In this document: piece by piece, positions 3,238 to 51,844 of the stretch | Layout: every line of letters begins with the position of its first letter | How positions within the stretch are numbered: position 1 is the stretch's first letter | Source of the DNA: Acidobacteriota bacterium | GTDB taxonomy: Bacteria; Acidobacteriota; UBA890; WLXD01 | Reading direction: 5' to 3' | DNA length: 64,000 nt | Assembly: GCA_965205505.1 (NCBI GenBank) | Contig: CBDBHB010000008.1 | Coordinates: 896,001-960,000, forward strand | Translations under genes and position numbers: made by a program | Notes under the pieces: generated by a model | Databases searched by the model: none | What the model saw: the letters and a program-made list of their open reading frames with translations, nothing else | What the model was told of the DNA's origin: nothing

Positions 3238-3346
3238 GGGCCTGACTCTCCGCCGTTTGGAAGGTGCCGTATCAAGCGTTTGACGTCCTGTCCAACAAGT
3301 GACGGCGGCCGCTGTAACCAGATCCGCCAGAGTTCTTCAGCACTAG

Positions 3347-3890
3347 TGGCCTGTAACAGATGATCGTTGCATATCGTGGTGGCGAAATGGGCTCGGATGC
3401 CAGGCGCAACGACGAGACGATGTTGGCCCATCTTGGAGGAGAAGCAACGCCGCAGACGGGCCCATTTCGCCGCCATCCTGCGGACAGATGGGCAGTTGTG
3501 GGCGATATCGGCGTTGCGCCTCGTCAACGATGCCCCAGCAGGTCGTGATGGAAGTGTGATGGGTCTGGTTACGCCACCAAGGGCGCGGATCCAAGGCGCC
3601 GCGTCGCAGGCGATGCCCGTGCGCATCGTCTAGGAGCGGCAACGCCGGAGACGCGCCCTTGGCGGCGTAACCTGTAGGGCAAGTGGGAGTCACGGGCGAT
3701 GGCGGCGTCTCTCCTCCTCGACGATGGCTCCAGCATCGCCTCATCGTCGATCCTTGTCCTAGCCCGTGAGTCCCATTTGCCAGACCCACCACACTTCCAT
3801 CACGGCCTGCTAGCATCGCCCTCCTCCCCGCGCCTTGATCTCACCCGCAAATCCCATCTGCGATATGCAACGATCATCTGTTACAGGCCA
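3347..3890. mobile_element. MITE-like element (family A) carrying a nested second MITE
   Basis: Perfect 30-bp terminal inverted repeat TGGCCTGTAACAGATGATCGTTGCATATCG (3347-3376 / 3861-3890) flanked by CTAG on both sides; no credible ORF. Confidence 0.85.
3539..3809. mobile_element. Nested MITE-like element inside the family A copy
   Basis: Inverted repeats CAGGYCGTGATGGAAGTGTGRTGGGTCTGG (3539-3568 / 3780-3809, 2 mismatches) flanked by CCAG/CTAG; removing it restores colinearity with the 49.6 kb copy. Confidence 0.75.
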
Positions 3891-3899
3891 CTAGATCCC

Positions 3900-16870: not shown

Positions 16871-17176
16871 TCAAAGCCTCACCCGCACCGCCGCCCCCTC
16901 GATAACGACCTCGTAGGTTCGCAGCCAATCGCCGGGAGAGTTGAGGCACTCGCCACTGGCCACGTCGAAGCGCCAGCCGTGCCACGGGCAGCTGACGGTA
17001 TGACCGTCGAGATCACCATCACCGACCGGACCGCCGCGATGACAACAGGTGTTCTCAATGGCGTGGAACACTCCGCCAACGTTGAACAACGCGATCTCTT
17101 TTTCGCCGATCTCGATCGTTTTCCCGGTACCTTCCACGAGGTCAGTAACGCCTGCGACCGTCTTCAGCTCACTCAA
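16871..17176 (-). CDS. Rieske 2Fe-2S ferredoxin
   Basis: CCHRGGP...CPWHGWRFD; probable TTG start at 17176. Confidence 0.88.
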   Translation of the reverse strand: MSELKTVAGVTDLVEGTGKTIEIGEKEIALFNVGGVFHAIENTCCHRGGPVGDGDLDGHTVSCPWHGWRFDVASGECLNSPGDWLRTYEVVIEGAAVRVRL

Positions 17177-17271
17177 CTTTGGGCCTCCGAAGCCCGCCCG
17201 ATGACGGGAACCGCGCCCTTGTCGACACCTCATGCGACGCGAGGAGGCTTATTCTGGCACGCTCTCTAATC

Positions 17272-18024
17272 GTGGGCAAAGAACTCGATCGTGACAGCCT
17301 CGCTCCCGACCGCGTCGAGGCTGCCGGCGGATCGTTTACCAACGCCGTGCAGCGGATGTTCGATGGCCTCGCGCCGCGCTACGACACGTTCAACCGCTGG
17401 GCCAGCCTCGGACTGGACACCGCGTGGCGGCGCGCTGCGATCCGCCAACTCGGGGTGCCGGCCGGCGGTTCTGTGCTCGACATCGCCACCGGAACCGGCG
17501 ACCTTGCACTCGCCTCGGCCATCGCCGGCCATCGCGCGGTGGGCGTCGACTTCGCCCGCGAGATGATCAACGCCGCCCGCGCCAAGCGATCGCGAGCCGA
17601 CCTCCCGGTGCCGTTCCACGTCGCCAGTGCCGAAGCCCTTCCCTACGATGAAGCCAGTTTCGACGGAGCCCTTTCCGGTTTCGCGATGCGCAACGTCCGC
17701 CCCATCCTGTATTCCGTGCTCGCCGAGGCACACCGTGTGCTCAAACCCGGCGGGCGCTTCGTGATCCTCGAGTTTTGCGACCCTCCATTTGCTCATGTCC
17801 GCTGGGGGCACCGCCTCTACACGCGAGCCGTCGTCCCCAACATCGGTCGCTGGCTAACTGGCACCTCCGTCCCGTTCGACTACCTCAACCGCAGCATCGA
17901 TGCCTGGGAGAGCCCGGAGTCATTCGCCGCTATCCTCACCCGCGCCGGCTTCATCGAGGTCGCGTATCGCCGCCTCACCCTGGGTACGGTCGCCCTCCAC
18001 TGGGGCGCCAAGCCACGCAGTTAG
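17272..18024 (+). CDS. menG: Demethylmenaquinone methyltransferase UbiE/MenG
   Basis: MFDGLAPRYDTFN, VLDIATGTGDLA, FAMRNV, RVLKPGG, YLNRSI. Confidence 0.9.
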   Translation: MGKELDRDSLAPDRVEAAGGSFTNAVQRMFDGLAPRYDTFNRWASLGLDTAWRRAAIRQLGVPAGGSVLDIATGTGDLALASAIAGHRAVGVDFAREMINAARAKRSRADLPVPFHVASAEALPYDEASFDGALSGFAMRNVRPILYSVLAEAHRVLKPGGRFVILEFCDPPFAHVRWGHRLYTRAVVPNIGRWLTGTSVPFDYLNRSIDAWESPESFAAILTRAGFIEVAYRRLTLGTVALHWGAKPRS

Positions 18025-18121
18025 ATGAGATGAGAAGGCCAACCTCCTGAACGCAGTAGCCTGACGGCTCTGCAAACGTTTCTTCAAACGTAACGGGCTC
18101 GAAGCCCAAGGAGGTTGGCCG

Positions 18122-19166
18122 ATGATAAGTGTAACGATTGGACTGGACGTAAGCGACCGGTACAGCCGTATGTGCGTGCTCGACAGTAAGGGCAGGGTGA
18201 TGGAGGAAGGGCGGGTGAGGACGAGCCCGGAGGGGCTGGCGAGGCGGTTCGGGTGCGAGGAGCCCGCTCGAGTTAGTGCTGGAGGTTGGAACGCACTCGC
18301 CGTGGATGAGTGAGCAGTTGAAGCAACTGGGTCATGAGGTGCTGGTGGCTAACCCGAGGCGGCTGAAGCTGATCTATGGCGAGCACGGACCGACCGGTTG
18401 GATGCCGAGCACCTGGCACGAGTGGGCAGAATGGACCCAAAGCTGCTTAAGACGGTGCAGCATCGAGGCAGACAAGCGCGAGCGGATCTAGCCGTGATTC
18501 GGAGCCGAGATGCTCTGGTAAAGAGCCGCACGCAGTTGGTGAGCCATGTGCGTGGTGCGGTCAAGTCGGCCGGTTGTCGTATTCCCAGGTGCTCGACGCC
18601 GGCGTTCGCGCGCACCGCGCCAGAGCACATACCGGAGCGGCTCAAGGGAGCGCTCGAGCCGGTGCTTGAAACGATCGCCATGCTGACGGGCAACATCCAG
18701 CAATACGAGCGTCAGATCGTGCAGCTGTGCCAGGGGCGATACCCGGAGACACAGCAGCTCCAGCAAGTGGCCGGGGTCGGAGCTCTGACCGCACTGGCGT
18801 ATGTGCTGACGCTCGAGGAGCCGGAACGGTTCAATACCTCCAGAGCCGTGGGCCCGTACCTGGGACTGAGACCGAAGAAACGGCAGTCGGGGGACAAGGA
18901 CCCTGCGCTACGAATAACCAAGGCGGGCGACAAAATGCTCCGACGCCTGTTGGTGGGGCTCGGCGCATTACATCCTGGGCCCCTTCGGGCCCAATACTGA
19001 GCTCAGACGCTGGGGGCTCAAGCTGGCCGGACGCGGTGGTCCTCATGGCAACAAAAAGGCAGCAGTTGCTGTCGCCCGTAAGCTCGCCGTTGTGCTGCAC
19101 CGACTGTGGCTGAGTGGAGACGAGTACGAACCGTTGCGCGCACCTGTAGAGGTTTCAGCAGCATGA
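18122..19166 (+). pseudogene. IS110 DEDD recombinase, split by about 3 frameshifts
   Basis: [55 protein letters not shown] spread over several frames. Confidence 0.9.
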
Positions 19167-19412
19167 ACTAACCCGCAACCAGGAGGTCGGTAGGGCGACG
19201 CGACCCAACGGTTATCGATCTGACCGCCCGGTCCGGGCGACTGCGAAGGTCACTACGAGCTTCGAGCTCGGCAGCTAGATTGCAGCGCCTCGAATCGGGA
19301 CGGACCCCAGAATGCACCGGACGACCTGAATCCTCGTCCACCAGAGTGCGAATAGGAGCATGGCGTGCAGATCGATTCTTCGCTGGGCACCACATTGCCC
19401 TTGACCGAACTA
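19167..19412 (+). ncRNA. Candidate bridge RNA / seekRNA of the IS1111 element
   Basis: Stem CTGCGA/TTGCAG enclosing an internal loop (AGGTCACTA; GCAGCTAG) around hairpin CGAGCT-TCG-AGCTCG matches the insertion site; second loop (CTCGTC; ATAGGAG) matches the joined IS ends. Boundaries approximate. Confidence 0.7.
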
Positions 19413-19428
19413 GGCCTTCTCATAGAAG

Positions 19429-19446
19429 TGGCCTGAGTCAGGACAC
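19429..19446. repeat. Collapsed family A MITE footprint
   Basis: TGGCCTGAGTCAGGACAC is a left end joined directly to a right end of family A. Confidence 0.6.
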
Positions 19447-19509
19447 CTGGCGGAGCGGTGAGACAGCCGGTTTCCGTAGCCGGACCCACCAGAGTTCTTC
19501 AGCATCCTG

Positions 19510-19893
19510 CTACGCTGAGAACGAATGCCCGCAGCCACACGTCCCGGTGGCGTTCGGGTTCTTCACCGAGAACCCGCTGCCCATCAGAGACTCGGTGTGA
19601 TCGACGTGACACCCCTCCAGGTAAGGAAGACTGAAGGAGTCGAGAAGCACCTCGATGTCGCCCTGCGGGATCACCAGATCGCCTTCCTTGTGCTCGTCGA
19701 ATGAGAACCCGTACTCGAAGCCTGAACAGCCGCCTCCTTGAACGAAGATGCGCAGCATCTTGCCTTGGGCGTCCGGCTTGGTGTCCAGGAACTCGCGTAC
19801 CTTGGCGATGGCGGCCTCGGTGAACACGAGCGGTGCTTTCGAGGTCGGCGGCGAGGCCGGGCTTTCGGGCTGCTCGCTAGCTGTGGCTTCCAT
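19510..19893 (-). CDS. erpA: Iron-sulfur cluster insertion protein ErpA/IscA
   Basis: GGGCSGFEY, NPNATGTCGCGHSF. Confidence 0.92.
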   Translation of the reverse strand: MEATASEQPESPASPPTSKAPLVFTEAAIAKVREFLDTKPDAQGKMLRIFVQGGGCSGFEYGFSFDEHKEGDLVIPQGDIEVLLDSFSLPYLEGCHVDHTESLMGSGFSVKNPNATGTCGCGHSFSA

Positions 19894-20097
19894 GAAGGCT
19901 CCGTGACGTCGTAGCGGATGACACGTACTTCTATCAGGATAAACGTTGTCCCGGTGTGGTCACAAGACTCGTTCGCGCCACTCAATCGAGCCGCATGCCG
20001 ATATCGTGATCCGAAGCCATCTGGTTCTCGGCCCAAAGCGCCCCCAAGTCAGCAAGGGCCGTGCAGGTTGCTGAAAAACTCTGGCGGGTCTGGCGCT

Positions 20098-22224
20098 TCA
20101 GTCCTGCGTTCCGAGCTCCGCCAACCGCACCCGCGCTCGGGGTGCGAGCCGAGGCCCGTCATTATGAAAGAGTCTCGCCTCGGAGTCGGCCGCCGCCCGG
20201 GTCAGAGCTTGGCGAGCCGGCTGCGCGCCGTCGGCCGAGCTCGCTAGTAAGGCCACCCCTAGCCAATAATCCACCGCGCCGGCACCGAAGGGGGCGCCGG
20301 CGGGCGCACGCACGCGACGTAGCACGTCCACTGCGGCCCCAAAGCGCCCTTGCTCCAGCAGCAAGTGGGCCATCTGTAGCTGCAGCACCCAGCGCGGCGT
20401 TACGGAGTCGCCAGCTCCCAGAGCCACTGTGGCCGCCGCCCACAGCGCCACTGCCCGCGCCGGATCTACGCCCGTCAGGAGCGTTGGGCTAGAGCCCAGC
20501 GTGACGCTCGCTACGCCAGGCGAATTGCCACGCTCGTAGCCGATAGCGAGCCTGTTGAACGGCGGCGAACCCATCAACACCTCTTCCACTTCGGCGGCGC
20601 CGGCTATCGGGCGACCATCGATGGTCAGGATGTGATCGCCGACGCTCAGGCCAGCGCTGGCGGCAGGCCCACCAGGCGTCAGCGATGCAACGATCCCATT
20701 GCCCTCGGGCCCGCCGTCGACTATCAATGCTCCCAGCCAGGCACGGTCGCCCGCCAGCGGCGCGTTGAGCTCGTCGACCCATGCCGTGAGCGCGTCGCGA
20801 TCCCCGCGAGGCAACCGGACCACGCCATGCGACAGGCCCGATCCGGCGGCCCACAGGCGCAGCACCACCTCCGTGGCCGGCGTCGACTCCAGTTCGACGG
20901 TGATGAACACGCTGGCCGGGATCTCTTCTTCCAGCCGATGCTGAGCAGCAGCGTCCAGGGTGCCGTCGTTCTGGAACTCCAGATCGGCGATGCGGTGGCG
21001 GCGATCCATCTGGAACCAGCCGCTGGCGCTGCCGAGCTCGCCGACGAGGTCGCCCAGTACCTCGTCGCGATCTAGCTCGTCACCACCTCGGGCACCGAGC
21101 ACGGCGATCCCGGGCAACAAGCGCACCTCCAGGCTGCGCGTAGTGCCGTCCTCGAGCCGGAACGGCATTTCGAACACGCCCGCACCCGGCATCGACACCA
21201 TCACGCGGTGGTCTCCGACCGGCAGCTCCAGGCGCGCCTGATCGCTAACGCCATCCTGCCGCATCGGTTCGGTGAGCTCGCCGTCGACGTACAAGTTGGC
21301 CGCGGGAGGCAAGCTGCGCAGCAGCAGCATTCCCAAGGCCGCGTCGAGATGCAGAACGCCAAGGTCGTAGTCGCTCAGGTCCGGCACCTCCAGCCGCTGC
21401 CGGAAGGTCCGGTGCTCGGCCAACGTGACTTCGATCTCGTACCACCCCGGGAGCAACGCGTCGACAATCAACGGCAACGACACGGTTGCCGCCGGGTTGA
21501 TTGTCGAGGCCAACGTCGTGCCCATTACTTCACCATTGAGGGTCAAGACTGCGCCTGGCGGATCGGTCGCCAAGCGCAGCGTGGCACTCGATCGCTCCAG
21601 CGATAACCCGACGCCCTCCGTACGGTTGTTTCGCACGCTGACCTCTTCGCGCTGACTGGCGTATCCGGCACGTCGGCCCACGACGACATGATCGCCGGCA
21701 AGTACCGGCAAGATGTCGGGAATGTCACCCAGCTCGCGACCATCGAGAAAGACTCGCAAATCGGCCGGGAAGCGCCCGATGCGCAGGAACCCGACCCTAC
21801 GCTCGCGACGTCGGCGAAAACGAGACGCGAACTCCGCCGACACCGACTCGGCGTTTATCTCGTAGGAGGGCGCCAGCTCGATCACTTGGTCGAGATCATC
21901 ATCGACCTCACCCCTACGACCGACCTCCCAGAGCGCTCGTGCTCTTGACATCAGAGCGCGTCGCAGCAGCAGCCGCAGCACCTCCGAAGGCGCCGCGCCA
22001 GAGGTGTCGAATCGCCCGATCATCCGATCCAGGAGAACAATCGCACCTTCGTGATCACCGGCCCGGATTATTGTCTCGGCACGAGCGTAGAGAATTCCCA
22101 GCTCCTCGACCGGGCCCTGTACCTCCACCAACGGTTGATCAATGGCGACCATCGCCAACGACGCGACGACCGCGAGAAGTAGCCCACGCCGGGCGTTGCC
22201 GGTCCGCGCCTCGAGGCTCCTCAC
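20098..22224 (-). CDS. Exported TPR / PEGA-repeat / PDZ domain protein
   Basis: Signal-like N-terminus; PEGA-like TDPPGAVLTLNG and PPAANLYVDG; PDZ-like GPAASAGLSVGDHILTIDG. Confidence 0.7.
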   Translation of the reverse strand: MRSLEARTGNARRGLLLAVVASLAMVAIDQPLVEVQGPVEELGILYARAETIIRAGDHEGAIVLLDRMIGRFDTSGAAPSEVLRLLLRRALMSRARALWEVGRRGEVDDDLDQVIELAPSYEINAESVSAEFASRFRRRRERRVGFLRIGRFPADLRVFLDGRELGDIPDILPVLAGDHVVVGRRAGYASQREEVSVRNNRTEGVGLSLERSSATLRLATDPPGAVLTLNGEVMGTTLASTINPAATVSLPLIVDALLPGWYEIEVTLAEHRTFRQRLEVPDLSDYDLGVLHLDAALGMLLLRSLPPAANLYVDGELTEPMRQDGVSDQARLELPVGDHRVMVSMPGAGVFEMPFRLEDGTTRSLEVRLLPGIAVLGARGGDELDRDEVLGDLVGELGSASGWFQMDRRHRIADLEFQNDGTLDAAAQHRLEEEIPASVFITVELESTPATEVVLRLWAAGSGLSHGVVRLPRGDRDALTAWVDELNAPLAGDRAWLGALIVDGGPEGNGIVASLTPGGPAASAGLSVGDHILTIDGRPIAGAAEVEEVLMGSPPFNRLAIGYERGNSPGVASVTLGSSPTLLTGVDPARAVALWAAATVALGAGDSVTPRWVLQLQMAHLLLEQGRFGAAVDVLRRVRAPAGAPFGAGAVDYWLGVALLASSADGAQPARQALTRAAADSEARLFHNDGPRLAPRARVRLAELGTQD

Positions 22225-49599: not shown

Positions 49600-49873
49600 C
49601 AGGGTGCTGAGTCAGAAATCCGTTGCATATTGTGGCGAGCGCGACCGAGGCGGATCCCAGGAGGCGCGACGACGGCGATGCAATAAGCATCGTCGAGGAG
49701 TGCCGACGCCGGAGGCGTCCGGTCCCGCCGCCACCCGGAAGGTTGGGCCGATATGGGGGCAATCTCGGCGTTGCGATTCGTCGACGAGGGGCGTGGCATC
49801 GCCATCCTCATCGCGCCTTGAGCTTGCCCCCATCTCGGCCCAGCAATATGCAACGGATTTCTGACTCAGGACA
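49600..49873. mobile_element. MITE-like element, family A
   Basis: Perfect 26-bp inverted repeat CTGAGTCAGAAATCCGTTGCATATTG (49607-49632 / 49844-49869); CTAG at 49596 and 49874; interior similar to the 3.3 kb copy. Confidence 0.82.
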
Positions 49874-51844
49874 CTAGGTTCTCTCCGCCCACGGATACTG
49901 GAATTCGGGTCGAATGACGTCGGTCAACAGCTCCTGGACGGCTCGATGGGCCTGGTCGAACGCCGCCTGCGTGAGCGAGATCGCCGCCGCATCTGAGTTC
50001 GCGATCGCGATGCGCCCGAACCTCTGGCGCCCAACGACCCACGGGGCCTCGTCGTAGCCCCAATCCGGATCGTATAGATCGTTGCCTCCCCCGGCGTAGC
50101 CGTGCGGCCAGCGGCCGACGGTGATGCCGGCGATGTCCCGGGCCGGGTCGAAGCCGCCCTCGCCGAGGGCACGGCCGAGCTGGTCGCGGATGTTGCGCTC
50201 GAAGGTCTCGAACGGGGTCGCCAGCAGCTCCTCGCGCCCGGCGCGGAACTGGTCGCGCGCCGACAAGCCGGGACGGGTCGGAAGCCGTTGTAGCCACAGC
50301 AGGATGGGTTCCTCGGGCGAGGCCGAGTGGCGGTAGTCGCCGACGTTCACGCCCCAATCCAGATCGATGAACTCGCAGAATCCACCCGGGGTGTGGATGT
50401 CTTGGATGCCGAGATTCTGGAAGGCAGTCCAGTTGCGGATCGCGACCTGCGTGTAAACGTAGGGCTTGCGCACGGCCATGCGTAGCGCCGAGGCCTGCTC
50501 GGCCGGCAGCTCCGGGCACAAGAAGGGGATCATGGCGTTGTAGCAGGCCATGACACACGTATCGGCGGCCACCGAAAGCGCCTTGCCGTCCTGCACGTAC
50601 GTCACCGTCACGCCCGACGACGCGCGACGCTCACCCGCGTGCCGCACACCGACAACGGTGGAGTTCAGGCGGATTCGCACAGGGCTCGTCGGAAGGTCGA
50701 GTTGCGAATAGCGCACCGGCGTGGTCACCGAGTCGTGCATCGTGCTCCCGGGCAGCGCCGACGGGATGAGCCAGCGCACCAAGAGGCGCGCCACCCCGGC
50801 GTTGCCGTCGGGAAAGTGGACTCCGTGGAAGGGGTTGCTCTCCGTCCCGGCGTTTCGCGGGGGCCGCGGCAGGCCGAGTCCCTGGAAGCCGGGAAACGTA
50901 TCCTCGCGAAACGCGCCCCAGGAGCTGTACGAATCGATGCCCGCCGCTCCGTTCGCGTCGCCCCGCTGCCGCAGGTAAGGGATCACATCCTCGCTGACGC
51001 CCACTACGTTCAAGACGTAGTCCTGATAGCTCATCTTCCGCAGACGATCGACCTTCTGCTCCACCGTGAGCTCCGGCAGGTAGTCGGTCTCATCGGCGAA
51101 CAGCGTCAGGATGCCGCGCTTGGCGTCGTCCGAAAGCGGCGTCCTGGACAGGTACTCCGTCCACCGCTGGCGCCCTTTTTCGCCGATCACACCACTGGAG
51201 AAGGAGCCCCAGGGCTCGCCAACGACGAGTCGATCTTCACCGAACACTTCGCGGGTGAAGAACACTGCCGACTGGAGGCCCAGTTCGTCATACAGGCTGC
51301 CGGAGCTGCTGCGTGGCAGGTTCGCAGCGTCGAGGCCGATGTCCTCAAGCAGCGAAACGCCTGCCGGGGGGTAGTGGCCGTCGATGAACTGGGTTCCGCC
51401 GTAGCCGATCAGCTGTCGGCCGTCGACATCGAACTCTACGCGCTTCGCATGCCCGCCGAAGTCGTCGTGGTTGTCGAGGATCAGTACGGAGGCGTCGGGG
51501 AGCGCTTTGCGGAAGTAGTAGGCGGCGGCAAGGCCGCTCAGTCCGCCGCCGACGACGACCAGGTCGTAGTGCTCGCCCAAATCCGCCGCCTCGTCCCAAG
51601 TCTTCCCGTATCGCATCTCGTGGGCGACCTCGAAGGAGCCGTCGTGGCTTCCCCGCATGCCGGTCAGCCGCGGCGGATAATAGTCGCCTGAGGCTTGCGG
51701 TACGGTGTTCTGCTGAGCCTTGCTGCGGGCATGAGCGGTCGATGAAGAGAACACCGCCCCGCCGATTGCTACGCTGGCACCGTCGAGGAAGTCGCGTCGT
51801 GTGATCTCACGATCCATCCCGAGCTCACGGTCCTTCCTCTTCAT
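49874..51844 (-). CDS. Second Tat-exported spermidine dehydrogenase-like flavoprotein
   Basis: TRRDFL signal; same motifs and near-identical C-terminus to 42027-44012. Confidence 0.82.
   Translation of the reverse strand: MKRKDRELGMDREITRRDFLDGASVAIGGAVFSSSTAHARSKAQQNTVPQASGDYYPPRLTGMRGSHDGSFEVAHEMRYGKTWDEAADLGEHYDLVVVGGGLSGLAAAYYFRKALPDASVLILDNHDDFGGHAKRVEFDVDGRQLIGYGGTQFIDGHYPPAGVSLLEDIGLDAANLPRSSSGSLYDELGLQSAVFFTREVFGEDRLVVGEPWGSFSSGVIGEKGRQRWTEYLSRTPLSDDAKRGILTLFADETDYLPELTVEQKVDRLRKMSYQDYVLNVVGVSEDVIPYLRQRGDANGAAGIDSYSSWGAFREDTFPGFQGLGLPRPPRNAGTESNPFHGVHFPDGNAGVARLLVRWLIPSALPGSTMHDSVTTPVRYSQLDLPTSPVRIRLNSTVVGVRHAGERRASSGVTVTYVQDGKALSVAADTCVMACYNAMIPFLCPELPAEQASALRMAVRKPYVYTQVAIRNWTAFQNLGIQDIHTPGGFCEFIDLDWGVNVGDYRHSASPEEPILLWLQRLPTRPGLSARDQFRAGREELLATPFETFERNIRDQLGRALGEGGFDPARDIAGITVGRWPHGYAGGGNDLYDPDWGYDEAPWVVGRQRFGRIAIANSDAAAISLTQAAFDQAHRAVQELLTDVIRPEFQYPWAERT

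Follow-up and report, generated by a model that had tools for sequence, protein, structure and literature searches.

The stretch of DNA analysed here (the window) comprises 64,000 nucleotides from the genome of an Acidobacteriota bacterium (assembly GCA_965205505.1, contig CBDBHB010000008.1, positions 896,001 to 960,000 of the forward strand). Directly downstream of a methyltransferase gene, window positions 18025-19428 hold a frameshifted, non-autonomous copy of an insertion sequence (IS) of the IS1111 group, IS110 family. The IS is 1404 bp long and is built of a short left end (97 non-coding nt, 18025-18121), a transposase gene and a 262-nt non-coding right end (19167-19428). Its ends carry subterminal inverted repeats (sTIRs) of 11 bp, each with a 5-nt extension and within the IS1111-group range of 7-17 bp, and the dinucleotide AG stands ahead of both junctions, which makes the boundary shiftable by 2 bp. 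Removal of the IS in silico joins GCAGTTAG to TGGCCTGAGTCAGGACAC. As a whole, the locus is explained best, and very probably correctly, by an IS1111-type element whose own RNA guides its insertion onto the site CTAG/TGGCCT, found at the ends of a miniature inverted-repeat transposable element (MITE).

The membership of the element in the IS1111 group is clear from its transposase. An intact frame of 348 amino acids is present in 10 of the 27 full-length copies of this genome, among them the one at G000:C8:5461-6866. The intact protein matches PF01548 (N-terminal DEDD domain, RuvC-like; E 1.4e-17) and PF02371 (C-terminal domain; E 5.4e-17), both of which are still matched by the gene fragments of the window copy. 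The intact copy also scores 202.8 bits against the NCBIfam model NF033542 ('IS110 family RNA-guided transposase'), for a cut-off of 140, and GLRPKKRQSG can be read in the translation, corresponding to the GL-P----S(T)G motif of the IS1111 group as defined in PMC11187229. In an alignment of 36 relatives, D9, E54, D92 and D95 are invariant and S257-G258 (nearly) so. Sequence similarity to the solved transposases of IS621 and ISCro4 is weak. The protein family is very large, with at least 7996 relatives at E<=1e-40 among the 8000 candidates scored; the relatives P0002-P0004 are 92% identical. A scan of genome contigs with a single protein returned one distant locus only, at 43% identity.

The insertion of this IS is site-specific. 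Its own genome contains 33 matches to it, of which 27 extend over the full length and are 98-100% identical, and the depth of the IS contig in the DNA run X1 (about 36 times that of the flank) agrees with the copy number in the assembly. Among the left ends, 27 of 28 follow CTAG and one, that of the window copy, follows TTAG; among the right ends, 30 of 31 precede TGGCCT and the other precedes TGACCT. AG stands ahead of both junctions in all copies, and there is no true target duplication. Upstream of CTAG the left flanks are essentially unconstrained, at least 26 of them being distinct. The unoccupied sequence CTAGTGGCCT occurs 109 times in the genome, for about 13 occurrences expected from base composition. 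CTAG followed by TGGCCT is occupied at 30 of 139 sites, and CTAG followed by TGTCCT at 0 of 87 (Fisher p 2e-7).

Most right flanks are copies of one MITE-like repeat, which is short, non-coding and present in many copies, with terminal inverted repeats (TIRs) that start TGGCCTGTAACAG. The distance between paired ends ranges from 17 to 614 bp, with 269-270 bp in 11 pairs, and the genome yielded no larger element with these ends (above 614 bp) that might be autonomous. CTAG is present on both sides of 12 intact pairs, which fits a duplication of CTAG or of TA within CTAG alike. In 12 of the 31 right flanks, a unit begins whose inverted partner can be recognised at a distance of 31-551 bp, and 8 more are the same repeat without a partner under the strict pattern, which makes 20 MITE-family ends in total. 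The remaining 11 are unique past their first 6-20 bases, and the window copy is in this class: it sits on a solo TIR-like palindrome of 17-18 nt, TGGCCTGAGTCAGGACA(C), followed by a different short repeat, with no full MITE. A previous reading of the window from its letters and open reading frames (ORFs), here called the sequence-only reading, had seated the IS on a MITE terminus, which describes the family but not the window copy itself. The different short repeat (19474-19512) has a core of about 30-39 nt and occurs in more than 30 genomic places, sometimes inverted; in the orthologous spacer of genome G004 it has the opposite orientation.

In the same genome, a sister repeat family has the ends CTAG/TGTCCTG and includes 17-nt mini-palindromes flanked by CTAG; it accounts for the 87 sites at which no insertion was found. 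Three free targets had been proposed in the window. Those at 3343 and 3894 hold, since CTAGTGGCCT lies unoccupied at 3343-3352 (+) and 3885-3894 (-), as the two ends of a 544-bp MITE, but the one at 49877 does not, since CTAGTGTCCTG at 49867-49877 (-) is an end of the sister family. In four other genomes of the genus, the MITE ends CTAG/TGGCCTG give 89, 83, 37 and 2 matches, and the transposase was not found there at E<=1e-30; therefore the target predates the IS in this lineage. It had also been proposed that the MITE termini lie at TAG stop codons. In fact, the TAG of the site is the stop of a gene-like ORF at 5 of the 27 occupied sites and at 30 of the 109 empty ones, as compared with 202 of 3000 random CTAG sites. 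The enrichment is thus real, yet it covers only about a quarter of the sites, a minority to which the window copy belongs.

The site is matched by an RNA predicted from the non-coding right end. Positions 19215-19312 fold with a long stem that closes an internal loop (closure CUGCGA/UUGCAG), in which two guide strands flank a hairpin. The sequence-only reading had located AGGTCACTA (19247-19255) and GCAGCTAG (19271-19278) in such a closed loop, and CTCGTC (19333-19338) and ATAGGAG (19352-19358) in a second one; all four motifs are at these positions, and the fold agrees with the first loop, with a hairpin between its motifs. The 5' target guide pairs with TGGCCT through a G-U wobble and perfectly with the lone TGACCT site; TGGCCT and TGACCT are both occupied and TGTCCT is not. 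The U of the guide can pair with G or A but not with T. The AU that follows the 3' target guide corresponds to the AT with which the IS left end begins, in the manner of a handshake guide. When 15 sequences are folded to a consensus, the fold retains the stems that close the loop, the hairpin within it, the UGCAC/GUGCG stem and a terminal hairpin, and compensatory changes are found at 12 of 30 pairs; this support comes from RNAalifold on 15 of the 66 anchored loci described below, picked for their short length, together with stem checks on each sequence.

Guides and flanks change together among homologues. In a genome of the same order (G011), a homologue with 62-68% protein identity, split by an unrelated insertion, has the same RNA scaffold, and its loops, CGGACUCUA and CCGAGUAG, match its own flanks (GAGTAG on the left and AGTCCG on the right). 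A metagenome scan kept 80 of 592 loci, at 50-71% identity. The RNA scaffold and the right end were anchored in 66 of 82 loci, the 16 without anchor motifs being dropped, and no conclusion draws on locus L039, which is from the unpublished genome G047; out of 81-82 loci, 64 (right) and 54 (left) were analysed for flank covariation, 51 for donor segments, 61 for the hairpin and 48 for the bases after the core. The reverse complement of the first 8 bases of the right flank shares at least 5 contiguous bases with the 5' loop strand in 50 of 64 loci, as against 207 of 3918 mismatched locus pairs (5.3%), and the six bases upstream of the core share at least 4 contiguous bases with the 3' loop strand in 41 of 54 loci, as against 186 of 2788 mismatched pairs (6.7%). 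When distinct right-flank groups are counted, 40 of 52 match the 5' loop strand. In addition, the dinucleotide that follows the core in the 3' target strand is identical to that which opens the IS left end at 44 of 48 loci, and to that of the target right flank at none of the 48. The proposal that downstream RNA guides of an IS1111-type element match the occupied site, itself the terminus of a resident MITE family, is strongly supported by the site shared at 28 of 28 left and 31 of 31 right ends, by the covariation of loops and flanks in dozens of homologues, and by the G011 homologue. A large metagenomic subgroup (L065, L067, L069, L071, L073, L075, L078, L079, L083, L084, L086, L091, L095, L110 and L128) targets ...TC(C/G)GAAG/TTCGC..., which is probably another repeated element in the host genomes.

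On the donor side, two further segments of the predicted RNA change with the ends of the IS. The left terminal extension differs among homologues, next to a left sTIR conserved in 64 loci, and covaries with the RNA segment just 5' of UGCAC (extension/RNA pairs TTAGA/UCUAA, TTGAG/CUCAA and ATGAA/UUCA). The segment just 3' of the GUGCG strand copies the right end of the IS in homologues, including the rare variants ATGGCAG, ATAAGAG and ATGGGAG. At the position of the GGACGA/UCGUCC hairpin, 48 of 61 loci have a stem of at least 5 bp, the arms of which come in 44 different sequences. Of the two motifs previously read as donor guides, ATAGGAG is supported, but CTCGTC is the 3' arm of this covarying stem and not an unpaired segment. 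The left extension together with the start of the sTIR forms a tandem repeat of variable copy number; the copy at G000:C9:2702238 has three ATGAG units, not two. The features of the window copy are collected in Table 1.

Table 1. Features of the window copy of the IS, its predicted RNA and its insertion site (window coordinates).
Feature	Position	Strand	Remarks
Left target half TTAG	18021-18024	+	CTAG at the other 27 left ends; core dinucleotide AG at 18023-18024
Stop codon TAG of ubiE/COQ5-like methyltransferase ORF	18022-18024		ORF 17179-18024, upstream of the IS
Left terminal extension ATGAG	18025-18029	+	5 nt
Left sTIR ATGAGAAGGCC	18030-18040	+	Reverse complement of 19413-19423
Left-end stem GGCCAACCUCCU / AGGAGGUUGGCC	18037-18121	+	Minimum free energy -48.3 kcal/mol, z -6.7
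DEDD transposase gene	18122-19166	+	Broken: +T at 18273, 4-bp deletion after 18387, +G at 18955
Closing stem of target loop, 5' strand	19224-19246	+	Pairs with 19280-19303; compensatory changes in consensus fold
5' target guide AGGUCACUA	19247-19255	+	Complements top strand T-AG-TG(G/A)CCT
Inner hairpin CGAGCU-UCG-AGCUCG of target loop	19256-19270	+	
3' target guide GCAGCUAG (19271-19278), then AU	19271-19280	+	Sense of left flank and core
Closing stem of target loop, 3' strand	19280-19303	+	
Proposed 5' donor guide ACCCCAGAA	19304-19312	+	Just 5' of UGCAC; covaries with left extension in homologues
Donor-arm stem UGCAC/GUGCG	19313-19350	+	Around hairpin GGACGA (19319-19324) / UCGUCC (19334-19339)
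3' donor guide AAUAGGAGC	19351-19359	+	Sense of IS right end CATAGAAG, one G for A
Terminal hairpin GGGCA/UGCCC, then TTGAC	19385-19405	+	Hairpin conserved; TTGAC invariant in 15 aligned sequences
Right sTIR GGCCTTCTCAT (19413-19423) and 5-nt extension AGAAG	19413-19428	+	Extension ends in core AG
Right target half TGGCCT	19429-19446	+	Heads solo TIR-like mini-palindrome TGGCCTGAGTCAGGACA(C)

These observations would fit the known RNA-guided route of transposition, with the DEDD recombinase provided in trans by the 10 intact copies. The IS would leave as a circle, its right end joined to its left end at the AG core, and an RNA from the 262-nt region downstream of the gene would bridge donor and target; we infer that this RNA is produced and bound by the recombinase. 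In the target loop, AGGUCACUA would pair with the top strand (T-AG-TGGCCT, with the G-U wobble) and GCAGCUAG with the bottom strand (N-CTAG), so that insertion would take place between CTAG and TGGCCT, with AG shared. This 10-bp site is the outer junction of a genus-wide MITE family, and the IS has spread through insertion at MITE ends and at solo TIR-like palindromes.

Several points weigh against this reading. The homologous loci are interrelated, 11 of them falling in one target group (TTCGC flanks), and the covariation counts overstate their independence. Positions -5 to -8 of 27 left flanks are near background, and the left guide is used over only 4-5 nt; no preference for its GCAG at these positions is evident across the 27 copies. 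The window copy alone has GCAG there, which may offset its TTAG, in a single case. Both donor matches are imperfect: the 5' donor segment reads CCCCA where CTCAT is expected, a match of only 3 of 5 to ATGAG that is seen also in the closest metagenomic relative, and the 3' donor guide reads ATAGGAG for an IS end ATAGAAG. No orthologous empty site of the window copy was recovered in four genomes of the same genus; the left flank of the window copy is present in them, and the intergenic region has diverged there, with other repeats. A scan of 17950-19550 called no sigma-70 promoter, the TTGAC region included, and a scan of 17000-20500 against Rfam, which may hold no model of an IS1111-type bridge RNA, gave no match at E<=1. 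Finally, the RNA-library data are assembled contigs from two studies (the metatranscriptome runs X18 and X19, from one study, cover the 3' part of the IS, and X20, from the second, covers 18933-19089), which cannot separate a transcript from contaminating DNA and show neither transcript ends nor strand.

Two other explanations of the shared site have to be considered. The recombinase might read the MITE terminus directly, through protein-DNA contacts or a TIR hairpin, the complementarity in the 3' region being coincidental or having another role, such as regulation. The palindromic character of many targets (e.g., the 17-nt mini-palindromes) could be cited in its favour, as could the constraint of only about 10 bp at the sites of this IS and the predicted status of the RNA. 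It is nevertheless very improbable. In 40 of 52 distinct target groups, the majority of which have no relation to this MITE, a change of flank is accompanied by a change of loop strand; the homologue in G011 is inserted at a target that is not a MITE but fits its own loops; and the guide is perfectly complementary to TGACCT, the variant that is tolerated, while TGTCCT is never used. Alternatively, the shared flanks might derive from co-amplification, that is, from copying of the IS with adjacent MITE DNA by segmental duplication, gene conversion or movement of the MITE. The repeat common to most right flanks, together with one left flank and one right flank that are each seen twice, would agree with such a process. 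On the other hand, there are at least 26 distinct left flanks, and the IS, being placed between CTAG and the TIR, is external to the MITE and would be left behind when the MITE transposes. Insertions are found at either end of the MITE, at several of its sub-families and next to 11 non-MITE flanks with only TGGCCT(G) in common, 109 empty versions of the site exist, and long homology past both junctions, shared by most copies, was not seen. Co-amplification is very improbable.

With regard to the transposase gene, the sequence-only reading had described that of the window copy as frameshifted, and comparison with the intact form confirms this, with three indels. The extra T at 18273 is common to 3 copies and the 4-bp deletion after 18387 to 12, whereas the extra G at 18955 is found only here. 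In total, 17 of the 27 full-length copies are defective: 12 have the 4-bp deletion and 5 a 1-bp deletion at window position 18528. The copies that share a defect are all at different loci; the 1-bp deletion comes with an adjacent substitution, and both deletion groups carry linked substitutions. This pattern suggests a spread of non-autonomous copies by means of transposase supplied in trans. Errors of assembly might instead have produced the frameshifts, every copy being in fact autonomous: the genome resolves into nine contigs in spite of about 30 repeats, as would be expected of long reads, single-base indels make up two of the three changes in the window copy, and an intact version is present on the contig of run X1. 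This is unlikely, given that a 4-bp deletion in 12 copies, a 1-bp deletion with a substitution in 5 and linked substitutions do not form an error pattern, and that about 36 copies are collapsed into one consensus on the X1 contig. Repair of the frameshifts is unneeded because 10 natural copies are intact.

Other derivatives of the IS are present in the genome. One, of 95 bp (G000:C9:2875347-2875441), resembles a MITE and derives from the IS by deletion: positions 1-96 of the left end run directly into TTCTCAT and CTAG. Another lies some 4 kb ahead of the window, at G000:C8:891218-892373; in this IS copy, positions 696-1058 are swapped for about 116 bp, and both ends and the RNA region are retained.

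The two ends of the IS show additional features of possible regulatory value. The 12-bp left-end stem masks the GGAGG Shine-Dalgarno sequence immediately before the ATG at 18122, and the same pairing is seen in the G011 homologue; this masking of the ribosome-binding site may prevent the translation of read-through transcripts. At the right tip (window 19401-19428), TTGAC sits 16 nt upstream of (C)ATAGAAG, and it may be the -35 element of a promoter completed at the circle junction, or of an outward-reading promoter. A terminator scan of 17950-19550 gave one terminator-like site only, on the minus strand and at chance level.

It is also possible, with a likelihood that we put a little below even, that the IS behaves as a parasite of another mobile element. 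Under this tentative reading, the guide would read a junction, the flanking CTAG plus the first six TIR bases, that exists only after a MITE has inserted, and the spread of the MITE through the genus before the IS would have created about 140 ready and mostly harmless landing sites. The guide U opposite the third base, which would take G or A and exclude the T of the sister family, would provide single-base discrimination between co-resident families, and the 16 copies with shared frameshifts, in which the RNA is still encoded, would have multiplied by transposase provided in trans. If this were true, each insertion would part a MITE end from its flank and might immobilise that MITE, and the guide-plus-ends module would be the real unit of selection.

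The mechanism itself was already known (2024) and is left unchanged by this finding, the element being a clear but expected example of it. Its value is that of a natural specificity experiment for an RNA-guided recombinase, since the genome contains about 31 insertions, 109 unused perfect sites and 87 unused sites with one mismatch. In addition, the evidence of covariation for bridge RNAs or seekRNAs of the IS1111 type is widened by the approximately 60 metagenomic relatives, whose guides are diverse, and the bases after the core suggest that handshake-like bases exist in this IS1111 subgroup. These data may be of use in cataloguing programmable recombinases and in understanding how ISs use other repeats as safe havens. 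Regarding the new guide specificity claimed by the sequence-only reading, no description of this element or of the CTAG/TGGCCT target appears in the available parts of the literature on IS1111/IS110, bridge RNA or seekRNA and MITEs, outside ISfinder and paper supplements; RNA guidance and insertion into MITEs, repetitive extragenic palindromic (REP) sequences and TIRs have, on the other hand, been published.

Several known systems resemble this IS. RNA guidance has been described for IS110/IS1111 elements, with the RNA in the right end of IS1111-type members (PMC11208160, PMC11187229). A close resemblance in plan is seen with ISEc11, ISPa11, ISKpn4 and ISPst6 (Siddiquee et al., 2024; PMC11187229), which share the DEDD transposase of 330-350 amino acids with a GL-P----SG motif, the sTIRs with extensions, the long non-coding region downstream of the transposase gene and the order of the guides. 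In fact, the order of the guides and their overlap at the core follow the IS1111-type seekRNA rule, according to which the top-strand match lies 5' of the bottom-strand match and the two overlap in the target (PMC11187229). The IS described here differs from that group in its target, CTAG/TGGCCT. Another example is IS621 (Durrant et al., 2024, PMC11208160; Hiraizumi et al., 2024, PMC11208158), with which it shares the plan of two loops that would read target and donor on both strands, the dinucleotide core, the core-adjacent bases that match partner DNA after strand exchange and so resemble handshake guides (PMC11208158), and a target inside a repeated element (a REP for IS621). However, IS621 belongs to the IS110 group, with the RNA in the left end, a CT core and very short sTIRs, whereas the present IS has the RNA in the right end, an AG core and sTIRs of 11 bp; the protein similarity between the two is weak (E 9e-8 over the C-terminal half).

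Targeting of other repeats has precedents as well. The elements IS4321/IS5075, which target transposon TIRs (cited in PMC11208160 and PMC11187229), are likewise IS1111-group elements that land specifically on the TIR of another transposable element. In the present case, by contrast, the target is a chromosomal MITE end plus its flanking tetranucleotide. The targets of IS4321/IS5075 lie within the 38-bp TIRs of large plasmid transposons. REPs are classic targets of these elements, and ISPpu9 and ISPpu10 of Pseudomonas putida have AG at both IS ends, insert at one position of a repeated palindromic element and have non-autonomous derivatives mobilised in trans, as appears to be the case for the IS of this study; unlike it, ISPpu9 belongs to the IS110 group and has its bridge RNA upstream of the transposase gene (PMC12288879). 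Finally, 20 of 21 copies of IS1111 in Coxiella burnetii are found in QMITE2, frequently in a copy that is small or incomplete (Wachter et al., 2018; PMC5896051). The site in that bacterium is a GTAG REP inside the MITE (PMC5896051), whereas here it is the outer junction, where the flanking CTAG meets the first six TIR bases.

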